Assembly: GCA_964502355.1 (NCBI GenBank)
Contig: CAZCWK010000006.1
Coordinates: 2,321-66,320 of the forward strand
Source of the DNA: an uncultured Bacteroidales bacterium
GTDB lineage: Bacteria; Bacteroidota; Bacteroidia; Bacteroidales; UBA1402
Reading direction: 5' to 3'
DNA length: 64,000 nt
Part shown: positions 22,253-30,012 of the stretch, piece after piece
Layout: each line of letters opens with the position of its first letter
Numbering within the stretch: position 1 is the stretch's first letter
Program-made: the position numbers and the translations under genes
The notes under the pieces: model-generated
What the model was told of the DNA's origin: nothing
What the model saw: the letters and a program-made list of their open reading frames with translations, nothing else
The model's database searches: none

Positions 22253-22939
22253 TTATTCAACAGTCATCATATAACCCGTTCCACGCATAGTCTTAATTTG
22301 AACCCGTGGATCGGGAGCAAGATATTTTCTTAACGTATAAATAAATGCATCAAGCCTTTGTTGTGTGTAAAACTTAATGCCTCCCCAGATAAGTTCGGCT
22401 ATTTCTTCTTTAGAAACCAGCTGGTTCATTTTTTTACACAAAAGTTCTAATAAATATGCTTCACGCATAGATAAATGAACATCACCATTAGATGAATGAA
22501 GTACCTGTAATTTAGCATCAAAGCCCATATTTCCCAAATGATATATGTTTTCTGATTTATCCTCAGATTTTATACCTGTCCTTTTTATAAGTCCCTGTAG
22601 ATAAGCATGAAGCTCATCAGGTAAAAAAGGTTTTTTAATATAATTATCAATGCCGATTTTATATGCTTCCAGTATTATTTTACTGGAAGTTACGCATGTT
22701 TCAAGTATGATTGGAATATCGGCATCCTTTTCTCTGATCTTTCTTGCAAAATCAAGACCACTCATTATAGGCATTTCAACATCAGATACAATTACGTCGG
22801 GTTGGAACTCTTCATACGCTCTCAATCCTTCAACAGGATTAACAGACCACTGAACATCATATTCGCCTATAAGTTCCATTCCTTCTTTTATAATGAAGCC
22901 CAAAACTTCATCATCTTCAACCAACAATAACTTGATCAT
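22253..22939 (-). CDS. OmpR/PhoB-family response regulator
   Basis: 228 aa. Receiver domain (DVIVSDVEMPIMSG, KKPF) plus a winged-helix C-terminus (MRGTGYMM). Lies 4 nt downstream of the kinase gene. Confidence 0.85.
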   Translation of the reverse strand: MIKLLLVEDDEVLGFIIKEGMELIGEYDVQWSVNPVEGLRAYEEFQPDVIVSDVEMPIMSGLDFARKIREKDADIPIILETCVTSSKIILEAYKIGIDNYIKKPFLPDELHAYLQGLIKRTGIKSEDKSENIYHLGNMGFDAKLQVLHSSNGDVHLSMREAYLLELLCKKMNQLVSKEEIAELIWGGIKFYTQQRLDAFIYTLRKYLAPDPRVQIKTMRGTGYMMTVE

Positions 22940-22943
22940 ATAA

Positions 22944-24245
22944 TCAATTTTTATATAAATCTATTATAAATTCACTGCCAACGCCTTCTGTACTATCTAC
23001 CATAATAGAGCCCTTATGGGCTTTAATAACTTTCTGGACGTAATTTAATCCTATACCAAAACCATCAATACCTTTTATATCTACTTTATTACCTCTTTCA
23101 AAATTGTCAAATATGTGTTTGATTTCTTTTTCTGAAATTCCAAACCCATTATCCTTGATATGAATCTTGAGTTTATCTGATTGACATTCACATATAATCT
23201 GAATTTTTATAGTTGATTCTGAGTATTTTATCGCATTATCTATGAGATTACTCAAAACATTTTCCATTAATGTCGGATCAAAATTCCAGACTATATTTTC
23301 CTGATTGTAACTGGTAGTAATTTCAAGATTTTTTTGTCTGTAATTATTCAATCTATAACTCTCTGCAATTTTCTCAATATATGGTTGTAATGTTACTACT
23401 TCATAGTCCGGAATAATTGCTGAATGTTCTGCTTTTGCAACCAATAGTATCCTTTCAACAGTTTTCAATAATTTTGAACTTTGATCTTTACATATTTGAT
23501 AATGTTTTTGTCTTGACTCCAGGTTACCTTCAAGCTTTCCGGAAGTCAGCATGGATGAAGACATGTATATACCACTTATAGGAGTTTTTAATTCATGAGT
23601 AAGAGCATGTGTGTATTCTTTAAGAAATGTTACAAACTTACTTTCTCTAAGCATTCCCTGTAACTGAATGATTAAAATTACACCAATCAATACAGCCAGA
23701 AACAAAGATATTATCAATATTAACTGTGCTTCCCGCAATACTGAACGAATAGGTGAAATGAGAGTTACTTTTAAATATTGATCTTCTGTAATCTTATTAT
23801 ATAAGGTGTATTTAGAATAAGTGCTTTTAATTCTGGTAGAATCATCAACCATCTTTACTGTATAATTCAACTTTTCATTCAAACTATTATCAAGGTTCTG
23901 GCTAATTAATGTATCCAGGCGTGAAACTGAACAGGGGAGACCCAGCATTTTTGATAGTTCTTGCAGGCTAGTGTTTATGTCGATTGATTTACTGACTTGA
24001 TTATCTGTAAGAACCACGTCATCATTATCTAAAATATTTTTTTCTTGAACATTTAAATTAATAGATTTTTTTTCAAGTCTTTCATATAACTCAGATTCAA
24101 CAGCTTTATCAATGCTTTCTTTGCATTTTACCAAAAGATTATGCTCCATAAGGTCAAAAGAATTTTTAAACCAGATATATTGCAGTACCAGTAACAGCAG
24201 TATGCCAACGATTGATACGATTCTGATAGATTTAGTCTTGAACAT
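22944..24245 (-). CDS. sensor histidine kinase (two TM helices flanking a periplasmic domain, HisKA + HATPase_c)
   Basis: H-box THELKTPISG, N-box LIDNAIKYS, G-boxes DNGFGIS and GFGIGLNYV. The track start 24272 is TTG; the first ATG is at 24245. Confidence 0.85.
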   Translation of the reverse strand: MFKTKSIRIVSIVGILLLLVLQYIWFKNSFDLMEHNLLVKCKESIDKAVESELYERLEKKSINLNVQEKNILDNDDVVLTDNQVSKSIDINTSLQELSKMLGLPCSVSRLDTLISQNLDNSLNEKLNYTVKMVDDSTRIKSTYSKYTLYNKITEDQYLKVTLISPIRSVLREAQLILIISLFLAVLIGVILIIQLQGMLRESKFVTFLKEYTHALTHELKTPISGIYMSSSMLTSGKLEGNLESRQKHYQICKDQSSKLLKTVERILLVAKAEHSAIIPDYEVVTLQPYIEKIAESYRLNNYRQKNLEITTSYNQENIVWNFDPTLMENVLSNLIDNAIKYSESTIKIQIICECQSDKLKIHIKDNGFGISEKEIKHIFDNFERGNKVDIKGIDGFGIGLNYVQKVIKAHKGSIMVDSTEGVGSEFIIDLYKN

Positions 24246-24297
24246 TATAATTTCATATTGAGGTGTATGCAAATATAAATGATTATTTAAAAACTTG

Positions 24298-24355: not shown

Positions 24356-24388
24356 ATCTTATATCTTATTTTTGTAAAAAATAAGATA
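24356..24388. promoter_or_regulatory. heptamer repeats (ATCTTAT x2 direct, x1 inverted) forming a perfect 12-bp inverted repeat that embeds a -7 box
   Basis: ATCTTAT at 24356-24362 and 24363-24369; its complement ATAAGAT at 24381-24387. Inverted repeat TATCTTATTTTT (24362-24373) / AAAAATAAGATA (24377-24388). TATTTTTG (24367-24374) matches TAnnTTTG, 44 nt upstream of ATG 24418. Confidence 0.5.
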
Positions 24389-24417: not shown

Positions 24418-24564
24418 ATGAAAACAATTTTTAATTCAACCAAAAGCAACAAGAAAAATTTTGAAGTTATCTCAAGTGAAGAAATGAAACAGGTTCAAGG
24501 TGGTGTTCGCGTGATTGCTATCAGAGATGGTGAAGGAAATATAAGAGTAGTTATCATACCTTAA
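24418..24564 (+). CDS. double-glycine-leader precursor peptide (48 aa), bacteriocin/RiPP/peptide-signal candidate
   Basis: Below the ORF-track cutoff. My translation: MKTIFNSTKSNKKNFEVISSEEMKQVQGG|VRVIAIRDGEGNIRVVIIP. The leader fits the GG-leader consensus (hydrophobic at -4, -7, -12, -15; E at -8; S at -11). A C39-peptidase ABC exporter lies downstream. Confidence 0.8.
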   Translation: MKTIFNSTKSNKKNFEVISSEEMKQVQGGVRVIAIRDGEGNIRVVIIP

Positions 24565-24584: not shown

Positions 24585-24761
24585 ATGGGAACAATAAATT
24601 TCCACGCAGAACGCCTGTTCTTTAATCCAATTTTAGATCCTATTTCTAATTTCAGGTCTCTCTACGGCATTGAAATTGAAGAAAATAGTCAGAATCTGTT
24701 AAACAGGTATATTTCACGTTCTGTAAATGATGCAAAGACTTACAAAGTAGTCATATTGTGA
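24585..24761 (+). CDS. hypothetical 58-aa protein (unannotated small ORF)
   Basis: ATG 24585 to TGA 24759-24761. Translation: MGTINFHAERLFFNPILDPISNFRSLYGIEIEENSQNLLNRYISRSVNDAKTYKVVIL. It starts 20 nt after the peptide gene and ends 5 nt before the SPASM gene. No recognisable motif. Confidence 0.45.
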   Translation: MGTINFHAERLFFNPILDPISNFRSLYGIEIEENSQNLLNRYISRSVNDAKTYKVVIL

Positions 24762-24766
24762 TTTAG

Positions 24767-25762
24767 ATGTATCGGTATTTTAACCTTTATTCGTTTTGTA
24801 TTCCTGTTAAGGGGATAAAAAGGGCGGTCGTCTGCGATTTGCAGCGTAATATTATTCAACCTATACCTCTGTTGCTCTTTGAATATCTCGAGAAACTTAA
24901 AACAGTTGATGAACCTTTGGAAATGTTAGATACTTATACTAACATTGAGAGGAATACAATCAATGAGTATATCAACTTCTTATATTATAATCAGTTCGGT
25001 TTTTTTACAACAAATAAGCCGATTGCTCCTGACATCCCGACAATTGAATATTCTGATGATAGTCAAATTACAAATGCAATTGTGGACTTTAACAGAAATT
25101 CGGAACATTCTTTAGAAAATATTCTTGGTCAGTTATCTGAATTGGGATGTAAGGCTATTGAAATAAGATATTTTTATCCAATACCTTTTACTCATTTTTT
25201 AGATTCATTAATCGTTGCAAATAATTGCCAGGTTGAAAAAATCGAATTTTTACTCCAGAAAAATGAGGAAATTAACTGGAACAAAATTCTTCAGTTAAAT
25301 ATTCAATTTCCAAAACTAAAAAAAGTTACTATAAGTAATTCTGCAGACAATATTATCTACAAACATGAGGACCTTGTAGTAATATATACTACTGAGATAA
25401 TCAGGAATGAGACAAAATGCGGTGTTACAGGTGAGCTTTATTGTATAGCTGATAACAGATTATTCTGGGAATCTCAGAATTTTAATAATTGTCTTTACAA
25501 AAAAATATCAATTGACAAATCCGGATTAATAAAGAATTGTCCTTCCATGCAGGAAAGCTTCGGAAATATACAATTCACTAAGCTATCTGATGTAATTTCA
25601 GATGAATCTTTTAAAAAATTCTGGACCATAACTAAGGATTCGATTGAGATTTGCTCAGAATGCGAACTAAGATATGTTTGTCAGGATTGCAGAGCTTATA
25701 CAATAAATATGAACAATCCTTTTTCCAAACCTCTGAAATGCAGATATAATCCTAAAGAATAG
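24767..25762 (+). CDS. SPASM-domain protein lacking the radical-SAM Cys triad (pseudo-radical-SAM / SPASM-only peptide-maturase-like)
   Basis: 331 aa. The C-terminus has a full 7-Cys SPASM pattern: CLYKKISIDKSGLIKNC (C-x10-G-x4-C), CSECELRYVCQDC (C-x2-C-x5-C-x2-C), and a final C in KCRYN. No CxxxCxxC occurs anywhere in the protein. Confidence 0.75.
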   Translation: MYRYFNLYSFCIPVKGIKRAVVCDLQRNIIQPIPLLLFEYLEKLKTVDEPLEMLDTYTNIERNTINEYINFLYYNQFGFFTTNKPIAPDIPTIEYSDDSQITNAIVDFNRNSEHSLENILGQLSELGCKAIEIRYFYPIPFTHFLDSLIVANNCQVEKIEFLLQKNEEINWNKILQLNIQFPKLKKVTISNSADNIIYKHEDLVVIYTTEIIRNETKCGVTGELYCIADNRLFWESQNFNNCLYKKISIDKSGLIKNCPSMQESFGNIQFTKLSDVISDESFKKFWTITKDSIEICSECELRYVCQDCRAYTINMNNPFSKPLKCRYNPKE

Positions 25763-25841: not shown

Positions 25842-28055
25842 ATGAAAAGCTTTCATTTTATTTCACAGTTGGATGCCATGGATTGCGGACCAACCTGCCT
25901 ATTGATGATATCAAAATTTTATGGGAAATCTTTTGATTTACAGGATTTAAGACAAAGAGCATCAATAAATAAACTTGGAACTAATCTGCTTGGCCTCAGT
26001 GAAGCTGCTGATTCATTAGGTTTTGAAGCAACCGGAGTTAAAGTTTCAGAAGATCAATTGATTGAGGATGTCCCACTGCCATGTATTCTTCACTGGAAAC
26101 AAAATCATTTTGTTGTATGTTACGACATTAAAAGGAAAAGGAATGGATCAGTGATTTTTTTAATTGCTGATCCTGCTACCGGATTAGTAAAGTATGATAA
26201 AAATGAAATCAGAAATAACTGGATAAGTTCCGGAAATTCAAATGAAAATGGAAATAAGGGAGTTGCATTGATTCTTCAACCTACAAATGTCTTTTTTGAT
26301 ATTGCAGAAGAAAAACCAAATGGAAAAAACAAGATAATCCCTTTTATTAATTATTTAAAACCGTATAAGAAGCATATTTTACAGATCATTGTAGGTATGG
26401 TAGCTATCAGCATTTTACAGTTGATTTTACCGTTTCTTACTCAGGTTTTGGTCGATATTGGTATAAAAGATGGCAATTTAAATTTCATAAAAATCATCCT
26501 CATTACCCAGCTTTTAATTTTTATTGCGAGATTATCTGTGGAATTTATCAGAGGATGGTTATTGTTACATATTAATACAAGGATAAGCATATCTCTTATT
26601 TCAGATTTTCTGATTAAAATCATGAAAATGCCTCTGAAATTTTTTGATACTAAAACAATAGGGGATATATTACAAAGGATAAGCGATCACAAAAGGATAG
26701 AATCTTTTTTAACAGGCAATTCGGTTACCTTACTATTTTCACTCATTAATTTTTTTGTATTTTCCTTAGTGCTTGGTTATTATAAATTTAGCCTGCTGGC
26801 TTTATTTTTATTAGGAAATACAATTTACGTTGTGTATGTTCTGTTTTTTATGAAATACCGCAAAAACCTCGACAATAAAAAATTTGAACTTTCTGCTGAA
26901 GAACAAGGTAATTTGATACAGATGGTTTCCGGTATGCAGGATATAAAACTAGGTAACTGTGAAAATCAAAAAAGATGGAAGTGGGAGCAAATTCAGGTAA
27001 GATTATTTAATATTAATGTCAAAAATCTTGCATTAGGACAAATTCAACAAATCGGTTCAGTCTTTTTTAGTCAGCTTACCAACATTCTGATTACGTTTAT
27101 TGCTGCTAAATCTGTGGTAGATGGCGAAATAACTTTGGGTATGTTGATGTCAGTAAGTTTTATACTGGGTCAGTTAAGTGCTCCTATTGATCAGTTTCTT
27201 GGATTTTTTCAGACATTCCAGGATGCAAAACTTAGTCTGGAACGGTTGAATGAGATTCACGGCAAAAATGATGAGGAACAGGATTCTATGAAAAAGCTTG
27301 AAGAGATATCCGGTAAAAGGAACATTATAATTTCGAATCTTAGTTTTGGATATGAACATGCTGAAAGAGATTTTATTTTAAGGGATCTGAATCTTGTGAT
27401 TGAAGAAAATAAAGTTACTGCGATCGTTGGTTCCAGCGGAAGTGGTAAAACTACATTGATAAAATTATTACTCGGTTTTTACGAACCTCAAAAAGGTAGT
27501 ATATGTATTGGTGATACTAATCTGAATAATATTAATCCTCACTACTGGAGGAATTGTACAGGCTCGGTATTGCAGGATGGTTATATTTTTTCTGAAACAA
27601 TAGCCGAAAATATTGCATTAGGTGATACTGAGATTAATAACGAAAAACTGAATAAAGCTGTAAATATTTCAAATATTAAAGATTTTATTTACTCTTTACC
27701 TCTAAAGTTCAATACAAAAATCGGTACTGATGGGCATGGTTTAAGTCAGGGACAGAAGCAAAGAATTTTAATAGCCAGGTCTGTTTACAAAAATCCGGAT
27801 TTTTTGTTTTTTGATGAAGCAACAAATGCACTTGATGCTTCAAATGAAAAGGAAATAATGGAAAATCTTGATTCTTTCTACAATGGAAAAACTGTAATCA
27901 TTGTAGCACACAGGCTAAGTACAGTCAGAAATGCAGATAAAATTGTTTTTATTGAAAATGGTCAGATTATTGAAGAGGGTAATCATGAGGAACTGACTTC
28001 GCTTCGGGGAAAATATTACAATCTTGTAAAGAATCAGTTGGAGCTTGGTAATTAA
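25842..28055 (+). CDS. peptidase-containing ABC transporter (PCAT; C39 peptidase + ABC TMD + NBD), bacteriocin/peptide exporter
   Basis: 737 aa. C39 catalytic Cys in QLDAMDCGPTC and His in HWKQNHFVV. Six-TM region. Walker A GSSGSGKTT, signature LSQGQKQR, Walker B FLFFDEATNALD, H-loop VAHRLS. Confidence 0.9.
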   Translation: MKSFHFISQLDAMDCGPTCLLMISKFYGKSFDLQDLRQRASINKLGTNLLGLSEAADSLGFEATGVKVSEDQLIEDVPLPCILHWKQNHFVVCYDIKRKRNGSVIFLIADPATGLVKYDKNEIRNNWISSGNSNENGNKGVALILQPTNVFFDIAEEKPNGKNKIIPFINYLKPYKKHILQIIVGMVAISILQLILPFLTQVLVDIGIKDGNLNFIKIILITQLLIFIARLSVEFIRGWLLLHINTRISISLISDFLIKIMKMPLKFFDTKTIGDILQRISDHKRIESFLTGNSVTLLFSLINFFVFSLVLGYYKFSLLALFLLGNTIYVVYVLFFMKYRKNLDNKKFELSAEEQGNLIQMVSGMQDIKLGNCENQKRWKWEQIQVRLFNINVKNLALGQIQQIGSVFFSQLTNILITFIAAKSVVDGEITLGMLMSVSFILGQLSAPIDQFLGFFQTFQDAKLSLERLNEIHGKNDEEQDSMKKLEEISGKRNIIISNLSFGYEHAERDFILRDLNLVIEENKVTAIVGSSGSGKTTLIKLLLGFYEPQKGSICIGDTNLNNINPHYWRNCTGSVLQDGYIFSETIAENIALGDTEINNEKLNKAVNISNIKDFIYSLPLKFNTKIGTDGHGLSQGQKQRILIARSVYKNPDFLFFDEATNALDASNEKEIMENLDSFYNGKTVIIVAHRLSTVRNADKIVFIENGQIIEEGNHEELTSLRGKYYNLVKNQLELGN

Positions 28056-28069
28056 TAAAAAATGTTCGA

Positions 28070-28585
28070 ATGAATCAAAATGATATAGAAAAAAGGTCAG
28101 GGGAAGTACAAAAACTGATGAATCAAATACCCGGTAAAATACTCATATGGGGAAATACGATAATTCTTTTTATAGTAATTAGTTTAATAATAATTGCCTG
28201 TTTTTTTAATTATTCAGAAGTAGTAAAATCTGATATCATAATTAATACTACCAGAACCGGTCATAATACATATGTGAATAAAGGGTTATTATTATTGAAT
28301 TTTGAAGGATCAGATAAAATCAGAAAAGGTTATCCTGTAGAAGTCCGTATTGATAACTATCTTGGACATAAACAAGGTCATATTAAAGGTGTTATAACAG
28401 CAATATGTACTAATAATTTAAATAGTGAGTTTGGAGAAGCTCATATAAATTTCTCCCGGACTGTGGTAGCTGATAACCATAAATATTTACCGGACTCTAT
28501 TGTGTTTCGTGGCAATGCGAAAATAATAGTTGGAAAAACCAGGTTTTTAACAAAAATAAAGCTGGCTTTGAAAAAGAAATCATAA
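28070..28585 (+). CDS. HlyD-family adaptor-like protein, unusually short (171 aa; no coiled-coil hairpin)
   Basis: The N-terminus (RSGEVQKLMNQIPGKILIWGNTIILFIVISLIIIACFF) and C-terminus (GNAKIIVGKTRFLTKIKLALKK) resemble the ends of about 400-aa Bacteroidota bacteriocin HlyD proteins (from memory). The central helical region is absent. Confidence 0.55.
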   Translation: MNQNDIEKRSGEVQKLMNQIPGKILIWGNTIILFIVISLIIIACFFNYSEVVKSDIIINTTRTGHNTYVNKGLLLLNFEGSDKIRKGYPVEVRIDNYLGHKQGHIKGVITAICTNNLNSEFGEAHINFSRTVVADNHKYLPDSIVFRGNAKIIVGKTRFLTKIKLALKKKS

Positions 28586-28593
28586 TAAAGGTA

Positions 28594-30012
28594 TTAAGCT
28601 ATAGGTATCTTAATAAGAAATTCAGTTCCAACATGTTCTTTGCTTGTAACCAGAATATCGCCTTTATGAGCCTTCACAACTTTTTTTACAAAACTTAAAC
28701 CAATACCGTATCCCATAATACTGCTTCTTTCAACTTTGCTACCCCGGTTGAAATTTTTAAAAATTTCATCCAAATCCTGAGCTGAAATTCCCATACCATT
28801 ATCGGATATTTTAATATTGAGGTTATTATTATCCTGCCGGCATTCAATATCAATATTTAGTGATTCATATGAATATTTGATAGAATTATCTATCATGTTG
28901 TAAAAAACTATCTCAAATTTGTCTTTGTCTATACAGGCTTGCAGATTTTCCGGATTACATATAAAACTAAACTTCACTTCTTTGTTTTGCACTGAGACAG
29001 ACTCTTTGTAATAACAGATTATTTCATTAACAAATTCGTTAATTTTTACAAATTTCTTTGTTAAAACAAGTTCACCTCGTTCTTCTTTTGCCAAAAGAAG
29101 TAGTCTGTGAATACTCCGGATTTGTTTTTCGCATTGTTCTTTGAATAGTTTATAATACTTGCTGCGTAACTCTTCGCTTTTATCAAAATTACCCATTTTC
29201 AACATATCAGAAACGTACATTATATTGTTTAACGGAGTCTGCATATCGTGAGTTACTGCGCTGGTATATTCCTTTAAAAATTGAATTTTAAGATGCTCTT
29301 TATTTAATGATCTTATTTGAAGAATGATAATCAGTATAACAAACATTACAATAAAAAGAGAAGTAAAGAATAAGCGTCGTATTTCTTTGTAGTGTATTAC
29401 AGATTTAAGATCAAGATTCATTTCAATTACCTGTACACTGTTTAACCTGATAAGAATATGGTTACCTTGTATGCTATCATATACCAGATTTGTATTAGAG
29501 CTAACTTCAGAAGTTGTTTTTTTGGTATTTCTACCCTTAGTAGAATCACTGATTAAACCTGAAATCTGAAAGTTTTTTAATTGAACAGAATCATTTTTGA
29601 TTGAAATATTATATTCCGGTAAAAAGCCAATTTTATTTGTAATAATACTTTTATATATAGAATCAATTTTAGATATATCAGGTTTAATACCCATAAGATA
29701 TGATGATTCATATAAAAATATTATCATATCTCCGGTTTTAGACGCCATACCACTAGCAATAACTTCTCCGTCAGTAACAAATGTATCTTTGACTAAACTT
29801 ATTTTACTGTCAGCTAAAACATCTGTTCTTTCAATCAATTCAATATCTGCCGCTTCCCTAAGGCTCGTTTTGCATTTCTCCATCATATCTTTTGATGTGG
29901 ATTCAAATGCTTGTAAAAACCAGTTATACTGCAGTATTAATAGTAATAAAACGCACAATATGGGTAATACATGCATTGATATGTAAACCAGTTTGTTCTT
30001 ATTTATTTTCAT
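28594..30012 (-). CDS. orphan sensor histidine kinase, paralog of 22944-24245
   Basis: 472 aa with the same architecture as the other kinase. TM1 LLLLILQYNWF compares with LLLLVLQYIWF. H-box VTHDMQTPLNN; NMIDNSIKYS; SDNGMGIS; GYGIGLSF. No adjacent response regulator. Confidence 0.85.
   Translation of the reverse strand: MKINKNKLVYISMHVLPILCVLLLLILQYNWFLQAFESTSKDMMEKCKTSLREAADIELIERTDVLADSKISLVKDTFVTDGEVIASGMASKTGDMIIFLYESSYLMGIKPDISKIDSIYKSIITNKIGFLPEYNISIKNDSVQLKNFQISGLISDSTKGRNTKKTTSEVSSNTNLVYDSIQGNHILIRLNSVQVIEMNLDLKSVIHYKEIRRLFFTSLFIVMFVILIIILQIRSLNKEHLKIQFLKEYTSAVTHDMQTPLNNIMYVSDMLKMGNFDKSEELRSKYYKLFKEQCEKQIRSIHRLLLLAKEERGELVLTKKFVKINEFVNEIICYYKESVSVQNKEVKFSFICNPENLQACIDKDKFEIVFYNMIDNSIKYSYESLNIDIECRQDNNNLNIKISDNGMGISAQDLDEIFKNFNRGSKVERSSIMGYGIGLSFVKKVVKAHKGDILVTSKEHVGTEFLIKIPIA

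Follow-up and report, generated by a model that had tools for sequence, protein, structure and literature searches.

Organization of the locus

The window, a stretch of 64,000 nucleotides from an uncultured Bacteroidales bacterium, contains a peptide-maturation cluster in which a small ORF lies between a precursor-peptide gene and gwsS, the gene of a SPASM-domain maturase. The features concerned are:

24418-24564, forward strand: precursor peptide of 48 aa, presumably the substrate that is exported, with a double-glycine (GG) leader and a hairpin-like core free of Cys (matches to double-glycine leader models; homologues in all related loci)
24585-24761, forward strand: small ORF encoding 58 aa and ending in TGA; its product is a divergent LPL homologue without the LPL motif, proposed as the partner peptide of GwsS
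24606-24647, forward strand: N-proximal conserved block of the small ORF, residues 8-21, A-E-x-L-F ... P-I-S (alignment A3, hhalign)
24702-24758, forward strand: C-terminal conserved module of the small ORF, residues 40-58, N-[RK]-x-I-S-R ... Y-K-V-V-x-L (alignment A3, hhalign)
24767-25762, forward strand: gwsS, 331-aa SPASM-domain maturase of the grasp-with-spasm family, without CxxxCxxC (TIGR04193; AF2 model)
25842-28055, forward strand: ABC exporter with a C39 peptidase (PCAT) (profile matches)
28070-28585, forward strand: short remnant of an HlyD-like adaptor, 171 aa (profile matches; relatives' genes encode 434-435 aa)

The ATG of the small ORF (24585) lies 20 nt past the TAA of the peptide gene, and its TGA (24759-24761) lies 5 nt ahead of the gwsS ATG (24767). 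The product of 58 residues contains neither Cys nor GG, and in all these respects an earlier note on this DNA described the ORF correctly. The translational coupling proposed there also fits the related loci: in all 13 measured, gwsS starts between -4 nt (an ATGA overlap) and +12 nt from the small-ORF stop codon, which is TGA in every related locus compared. Judged by this spacing, the small ORF appears to be co-transcribed, and is probably translationally coupled, with gwsS. Neither the small ORF nor any of 35 relatives, the canonical proteins included, matches a Pfam or NCBIfam family. The double-glycine leader models also miss it, and match the neighbouring 48-aa peptide.

The surrounding genes show several further features. 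The cores of the precursor (24418-24564) and of its homologues (L019-L029, L076 and L078) are hypervariable and free of Cys, consisting of a strand, a turn ([DNP]-x-[DET]-G) and a second strand, and the leaders keep M-K-T ... GG. In one related locus (L022 / L015, G025:C96) a run of N stands just upstream of the small ORF, at the expected position of the precursor gene. About 44 nt upstream of the peptide ATG lies an inverted repeat (24363-24387) with 11-bp arms and a 3-nt gap, overlapping a Bacteroidetes -7 promoter box of the TAnnTTTG type (24367-24374). Translated upstream frames suggest that the sequence of the repeat is conserved in related loci, and it may be a candidate operator for the adjacent response regulator. 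This regulator is encoded upstream together with a histidine kinase (22253-24272, reverse strand), and a second, paralogous kinase is encoded downstream (28594-30012, reverse strand). Such regulator and kinase genes bracket the cluster in the window and in loci L076-L078, which suggests a peptide-sensing circuit. The HlyD-like gene at the end of the cluster has counterparts of 434-435 aa with an AprE-type beta-barrel match in L076 and L078, and the window's copy looks internally deleted or truncated.

Conservation and coding status of the small ORF

Of the 13 other genomes of the genus, 12 contain GwsS; it is missing from all 15 genomes of two sister genera. An open frame homologous to the small ORF is found directly upstream of gwsS in all 12 gwsS-bearing genomes of the genus, two of the copies being cut by contig ends. 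The aligned homologues comprise 57-67 aa, are 34-95% identical to the window's protein and differ by indels of whole codons only, including a deletion of 10 codons in the variable middle. Between the window's gene and its nearest copy (genome G027) there are 12 substitutions, all of them synonymous (dN 0, dS 0.43), and dN/dS in other close pairs is 0.06, 0.12 and 0.28. Conservation is concentrated in two blocks, A-E-x-L-F ... P-I-S on the N-terminal side and F-N-K-x-I-S-R-L-x-N ... Y-K-V-V-x-L at the C-terminus. Within them, P19, I43, S44, R45 and Y53 are invariant in alignments A1 and A3 (in A3, which holds 18 members of the window's family, L11 is invariant too), and E9, F12 and I20 are nearly invariant in A3.

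Such an ORF is rarely produced by chance, as 20,000 Markov-1 simulations of the 202-nt gap at 30% G+C yielded an ATG-to-stop frame of 58 or more codons in 43 cases (~0.2%). Presence of the frame in 12 of 12 syntenic clusters, dN/dS of 0-0.28 and codon-sized indels together refute a chance ORF and identify the small ORF, at the level of sequence comparison, as a genuine protein-coding gene under purifying selection; the option of noise, which the earlier note had entertained, is thereby removed. The probability of a chance ORF or non-coding spacer is practically nil: absence from the gene list of one relative's public record and the failure of every family model would agree with it, but the exclusively synonymous changes relative to the nearest copy, the ceiling of 0.28 on dN/dS and a frame kept in all clusters down to 34% identity do not.

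The family is narrow. A word-seeded search with the single sequence against a database of 5.8 billion proteins returned one match (95%), and when 1.84 billion representative proteins were searched exhaustively with a profile, the matches were limited to 7 clusters, all belonging to this narrow family, and a single spurious repeat protein. Across 400 genomes of the order, an HMM of alignment A1 found nothing convincing outside the genus. Where homologues are named at all in the sources, the name is 'hypothetical protein'; the small ORF is missing among the genes listed on the public record of L076 and is called in L078.

Absence of the ATP-grasp gene

GwsS matches TIGR04193 ('grasp-with-spasm system SPASM domain peptide maturase') with 258.7 bits, against a cut-off of 175. 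Grasp-with-spasm systems are defined by the joint presence of GwsG, the ATP-grasp protein, and GwsS, and only the latter is found here. TIGR04192 (GwsG) has no match in the genome from which the window comes (94% complete). Nor has it one among the 29 genomes of the taxonomic family, of which one is a complete single contig bearing the cluster. In a sample of 401 genomes of the order, GwsG is also matched in each of the 19 other genomes whose GwsS exceeds the cut-off, and gwsG adjoins in all class-level loci inspected. A search for independent gwsS loci without gwsG found none in 401 order-level or 341 phylum-level genomes. The metagenomic relatives L076-L078, whose GwsS proteins are 44-51% identical to the window's, share its layout of two-component system, peptide, small ORF, gwsS, PCAT and HlyD. 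By its gene content, the cluster is a 'spasm-without-grasp' derivative, and its carriers form a single such clade. Given the loss of the ATP-grasp protein in this lineage, the small protein most likely serves the SPASM protein as a helper peptide.

Relationship to the LPL family

A survey of ATP-grasp clusters describes a family of small proteins, termed LPL, encoded directly upstream of SPASM genes in the Bacteroidota clusters of branch 5 (Makarova et al., 2022, Biol Direct 17:7, PMC8939145). The LPL proteins are proposed there to be PqqD-like auxiliary components with a chaperone role; alternatively, according to the same survey, the LPL motif might contact the ATP-grasp protein. The motif is described there as resembling a graspetide leader motif, which branch-5 precursors lack. 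No Pfam or NCBIfam model covers the LPL family, judged by a scan of 17 canonical members (alignment A2), and TIGR04194 (grasp_w_spasm_A) matches nothing in five canonical genomes, nor the small ORFs.

Outside the genus, 17 informative gwsS loci of the order and 9 loci from other orders of the class were inspected. Every one of these loci contains gwsG, and an ORF of 51-81 aa adjoins gwsG, gwsS or both in 17 of 17 and 9 of 9 of them, respectively, and lies between the two genes in most. The N-terminal motif of these canonical ORFs reads h-P-h-N-[YF], the C-terminal one F-Y-K-P-I-S-[KR] (A2). The canonical gwsS genes closest to that of the window (44-45% identity) are preceded by ORFs of 78-81 aa of the type 'SLNF...KHISRY...Y', 25 of which were aligned as A6. 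The small ORF can travel with either enzyme, as shown by loci in which another gene intervenes. In L083 and L084 (G690 and G632) a gene of 268-300 aa separates the LPL ORF from gwsS and the LPL ORF stays beside gwsG, and in L049 (G189) a gene of 416 aa separates it from gwsG and it stays beside gwsS. A different arrangement is seen in L063 (G388:C18, oriented coordinates 386-1486), where the ATP-grasp ORF exceeds its usual length by ~46 aa, covering the place of the small ORF and reaching the start of gwsS. The extension contains an LPL-like L-F-P-I segment and no Y-K-P-I-S motif, and this long ORF may represent a GwsG-LPL fusion or a frameshift.

The window's family can be connected to the canonical proteins in two steps. 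Profile-profile comparison by hhalign aligns A3 with A6 over window residues 5-58 (probability 92.3%, E 5.7e-7) and A6 with A2 (probability 97.0%, E 9.4e-11). The direct comparison of A1 with A2 is weak (probability 7.9%, P 0.0044), and only the I-S-[RK] block is aligned. The link also appears in searches of loci. The six-frame ORFs of 24 canonical loci, 1,438 in all, were searched with the A3 HMM, and each of the top 5 matches was the ORF directly upstream of gwsS. In the reverse direction, a broad LPL HMM did not pick out the small ORF among the 879 ORFs of the window, and an HMM of only four sequences (A4) ranked it fourth (E 0.58). Taken together, the profile comparisons show the product of the small ORF to be a divergent relative of the LPL proteins, the relationship being established through the SLNF intermediates.

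The alignments also indicate which parts of the protein have been kept. The C-terminal block, L-N-R-Y-I-S-R in the window and F-N-K-x-I-S-R-L in the family consensus, is paired by hhalign with the K-H-I-S-R-Y and Y-K-P-I-S-K blocks of canonical relatives, and the counterpart of the N-proximal block is the stretch after their SLNF/LPL motif. The common block [FY]-[YNH]-K-x-I-[ST]-[RK] is our own reading of A2 and A6 and not a definition taken from the published survey. The signature motif itself is judged to be missing because the alignment begins at window residue 5, immediately past the invariant S-L-N columns of A6, so that only the next aromatic or hydrophobic position is kept. The window's protein lacks the LPL/SLNF signature together with ~10-19 N-terminal residues, and retains the later segment and the whole C-terminal module.

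Compared with the LPL family, the window's protein has the same place directly upstream of, and tightly coupled to, a TIGR04193 gene, a similar size (50-80 aa in both), no GG motif, homology through the SLNF subfamily and the C-terminal [FY]-x-K-x-I-[ST]-[RK] motif. It differs in lacking the N-terminal LPL/SLNF motif and any association with GwsG, which is missing from the cluster and from the whole taxonomic family, and the precursors of the window's clade are Cys-free, hairpin-like GG peptides. The loss of the LPL motif coincides with the loss of GwsG; as both belong to one evolutionary event (n=1), the coincidence is suggestive only.

Partner or substrate of the SPASM protein

Natural fusions of an LPL protein with GwsS occur in two homologues. 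P0090 (431 aa) and P0118 (454 aa) have an N-terminal extension with an LPL motif and a Y-H-K-P-x-x-R motif, followed by a linker of 30-45 aa, and the LPL HMM matches both extensions (E 1e-5 and 8e-7, respectively). P0118 occurs on 7 contigs, in a gwsG - fusion - PCAT cluster without a separate small ORF. The maintenance of such a fusion favours a stoichiometric partner of GwsS. The occurrence of one small ORF per gwsS, its coupling, the absence of GG from a protein encoded beside a PCAT, and the retention of the motif across unrelated precursors point the same way. Of the readings considered, an accessory subunit of the SPASM protein has the best support, and it agrees with the role proposed for LPL proteins by Makarova et al. 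(2022).

Among the options of the earlier note, a second, non-canonical substrate is disfavoured by the missing GG, the 1:1 ratio to gwsS across unrelated precursors and the natural fusion. In its most explicit form, the substrate reading holds that the small protein is a non-exported, cofactor-type or intracellular RiPP precursor such as PqqA or MftA, in which conserved Ser, Tyr, Lys or Arg residues are modified by GwsS. In favour of this reading, the protein is short and without a stable fold in the AF2 model (pLDDT 57), is conserved only in short linear motifs around a variable, indel-prone middle, contains the invariant S44 and Y53 and is encoded directly before the enzyme, much as the genes of PqqA and MftA adjoin those of their SPASM enzymes. 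However, it shows no double-glycine leader or other recognisable signal for cleavage or export, and a GG-leader peptide is encoded separately in the cluster, together with a PCAT. The small protein is found strictly once per gwsS, whereas the precursors of these systems are described as multiple and hypervariable (PMC8939145), and the same C-terminal motif is retained in clusters with unrelated precursors. Moreover, the protein occurs fused to the N-terminus of GwsS, and GwsS lacks the radical-SAM cluster motif that chemistry of the PqqE or MftC type needs. We therefore regard a second substrate as unlikely.

The SPASM protein and the RRE question

The AF2 model of GwsS (pLDDT 89, pTM 0.82) predicts four N-terminal strands and three helices (residues 1-80), a partial barrel and a SPASM domain. 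At full length, its best Foldseek match is the RRE-containing sactisynthase CteB (5why/5wgg, E 1.7e-6), followed by SkfB. Because of this N-terminal strand/helix fold and the likeness to CteB over the full length, GwsS itself already has a predicted RRE-like domain. Among 64 homologues, residues 1-34 have a mean top-residue frequency of 0.69, compared with 0.67 for the SPASM domain and 0.47 for the barrel. For a domain supposed to recognise hypervariable leaders, such conservation is unusual, and it would be explained if the ligand were the conserved C-terminal module of the small protein. The same homologues show, besides the SPASM cysteines, that C11 and C128 are invariant and C23 nearly so, C11 and C23 lying in the RRE-like strands.

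For the small protein, AF2 gives no confident fold. The model built on the 18-sequence alignment (pLDDT 57, pTM 0.20) contains three short helices and no strands, Foldseek with this low-confidence model finds no match in the PDB, and a sequence search of the PDB with the small-ORF profile is equally blank. No Pfam family, PF05402 included, is matched by the window's protein at E <= 1, nor by the 18 members of A3 and the 17 of A2 at E <= 0.1. An RRE is a winged helix of three strands and three helices and ~85-90 aa, a fold that the 58-aa protein does not show, the low AF2 confidence making this a weak negative. As AlphaFold yields no confident fold, the protein is not regarded as a PqqD/RRE domain.

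The earlier note had raised a small PqqD/RRE-like leader-recognition subunit, which would act as a discrete RRE, binding the leader of the GG peptide and passing it on to GwsS. The position of the gene, immediately upstream of and coupled to that of a SPASM-domain maturase, is that of PqqD relative to PqqE and of MftB relative to MftC, and a PqqD-like chaperone role was proposed for LPL proteins by Makarova et al. (2022). However, this reading is very unlikely in view of the missing matches to PF05402 or any other Pfam or NCBIfam model in 35 members, the missing sequence match in the PDB, and a length ~30 residues below that of PqqD together with a model that is helical only. In addition, the partner enzyme differs from those of PqqD and MftB in having an RRE-like domain of its own (four strands followed by three helices, as in the likeness to CteB) and in lacking a radical-SAM cluster motif. 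A chaperone-like role in a looser sense overlaps with the accessory-subunit reading.

Finally, it is scarcely credible that the small protein is an intracellular immunity or neutralising factor whose C-terminal beta-strand pairs with the hairpin peptide and renders it harmless, or keeps it in solution, until export: the protein is hydrophilic and cytoplasmic, and its Y-K-V-V-x-L tail is similar to the final strand in the core of the window's precursor, but homologues occur in clusters with unrelated, non-hairpin precursors and fused to GwsS, and a co-variation of this tail with the highly variable precursor cores was rejected on inspection of the related loci.

Proposed mechanism

The accessory-subunit reading can be formulated as a mechanism in which the small protein is a translationally coupled partner peptide of GwsS, and as a whole this mechanism seems to us somewhat more probable than improbable. 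The peptide, having little structure alone, would fold on binding GwsS in a 1:1 complex. Contact would be made through the conserved C-terminal module, that is, the x-K-x-I-S-R motif and the Y-K-V-V-x-L tail, and the unusually conserved N-terminal RRE-like beta-sheet of GwsS is, by its conservation, the likely docking site. Once bound, the peptide may stabilise or activate GwsS or position the GG-leader hairpin peptide before its export by the PCAT. In canonical systems, the additional LPL/SLNF motif would tether or activate GwsG, in line with the contact proposed in the literature. In the window's lineage, both GwsG and the LPL motif are gone and the protein would have become a GwsS-only adaptor. 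The assignment of the two conserved motifs to two different partners follows from the survival of the SPASM-proximal module alone after the loss of gwsG and from the fusions to GwsS elsewhere.

Two further systems bear comparison. The leader motifs of graspetides, which bind and activate ATP-grasp ligases (PFFARFL in microviridin; 'Phh[x1-2]h' in PMC8939145), are likewise short linear motifs on a small peptide, thought to engage the maturase; in the window's protein, the motif-bearing N-terminus is missing and the SPASM-side module remains. A precedent for a co-encoded, non-catalytic partner that is needed for the stability and activity of a RiPP enzyme and co-purifies with it is MirC with MirB (Carter et al., 2026, PMC13097080). 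Unlike the window's protein, however, MirC is a SurA-like protein of 315 aa that partners an ATP-grasp enzyme, and the two are unrelated in sequence and size. The SPASM-associated group 14 was left uncharacterised in that study (PMC13097080).

A bolder version of the partner-peptide mechanism treats the small protein as a stand-alone, trans-acting 'surrogate leader'. Its conserved C-terminal module would be what the conserved RRE-like domain of GwsS actually binds, and in canonical systems its LPL motif would play this part for GwsG. We consider this version possible but rather doubtful.

Implications

The LPL family itself and the idea of a chaperone role are already published, as a prediction made a single time (Makarova et al., 2022). 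The present analysis adds a divergent subfamily in a type of cluster that is invisible to surveys seeded with ATP-grasp proteins, the loss of the signature motif together with the ATP-grasp protein, the C-terminal motif as the feature that unites the family, and the evidence for LPL-GwsS fusions. Bacteroidota contain many grasp-with-spasm clusters (graspetide group 14, or branch 5), for which the literature searched yielded no functional tests. A profile of the small-protein family would recover a gene that is systematically missed in annotation.

Purifying selection has maintained the small protein in the window's lineage beyond the loss of the ATP-grasp protein, with only its SPASM-proximal module retained. 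The cluster thereby offers a minimal system of three genes, encoding the peptide, the small protein and GwsS. If the surrogate-leader version were true, an invariant peptide would assemble and activate the enzymes and hypervariable GG peptides would be processed without a recognition sequence of their own, and the window's lineage would represent a natural dissection of a two-headed adaptor, of which only the SPASM-side head remains.
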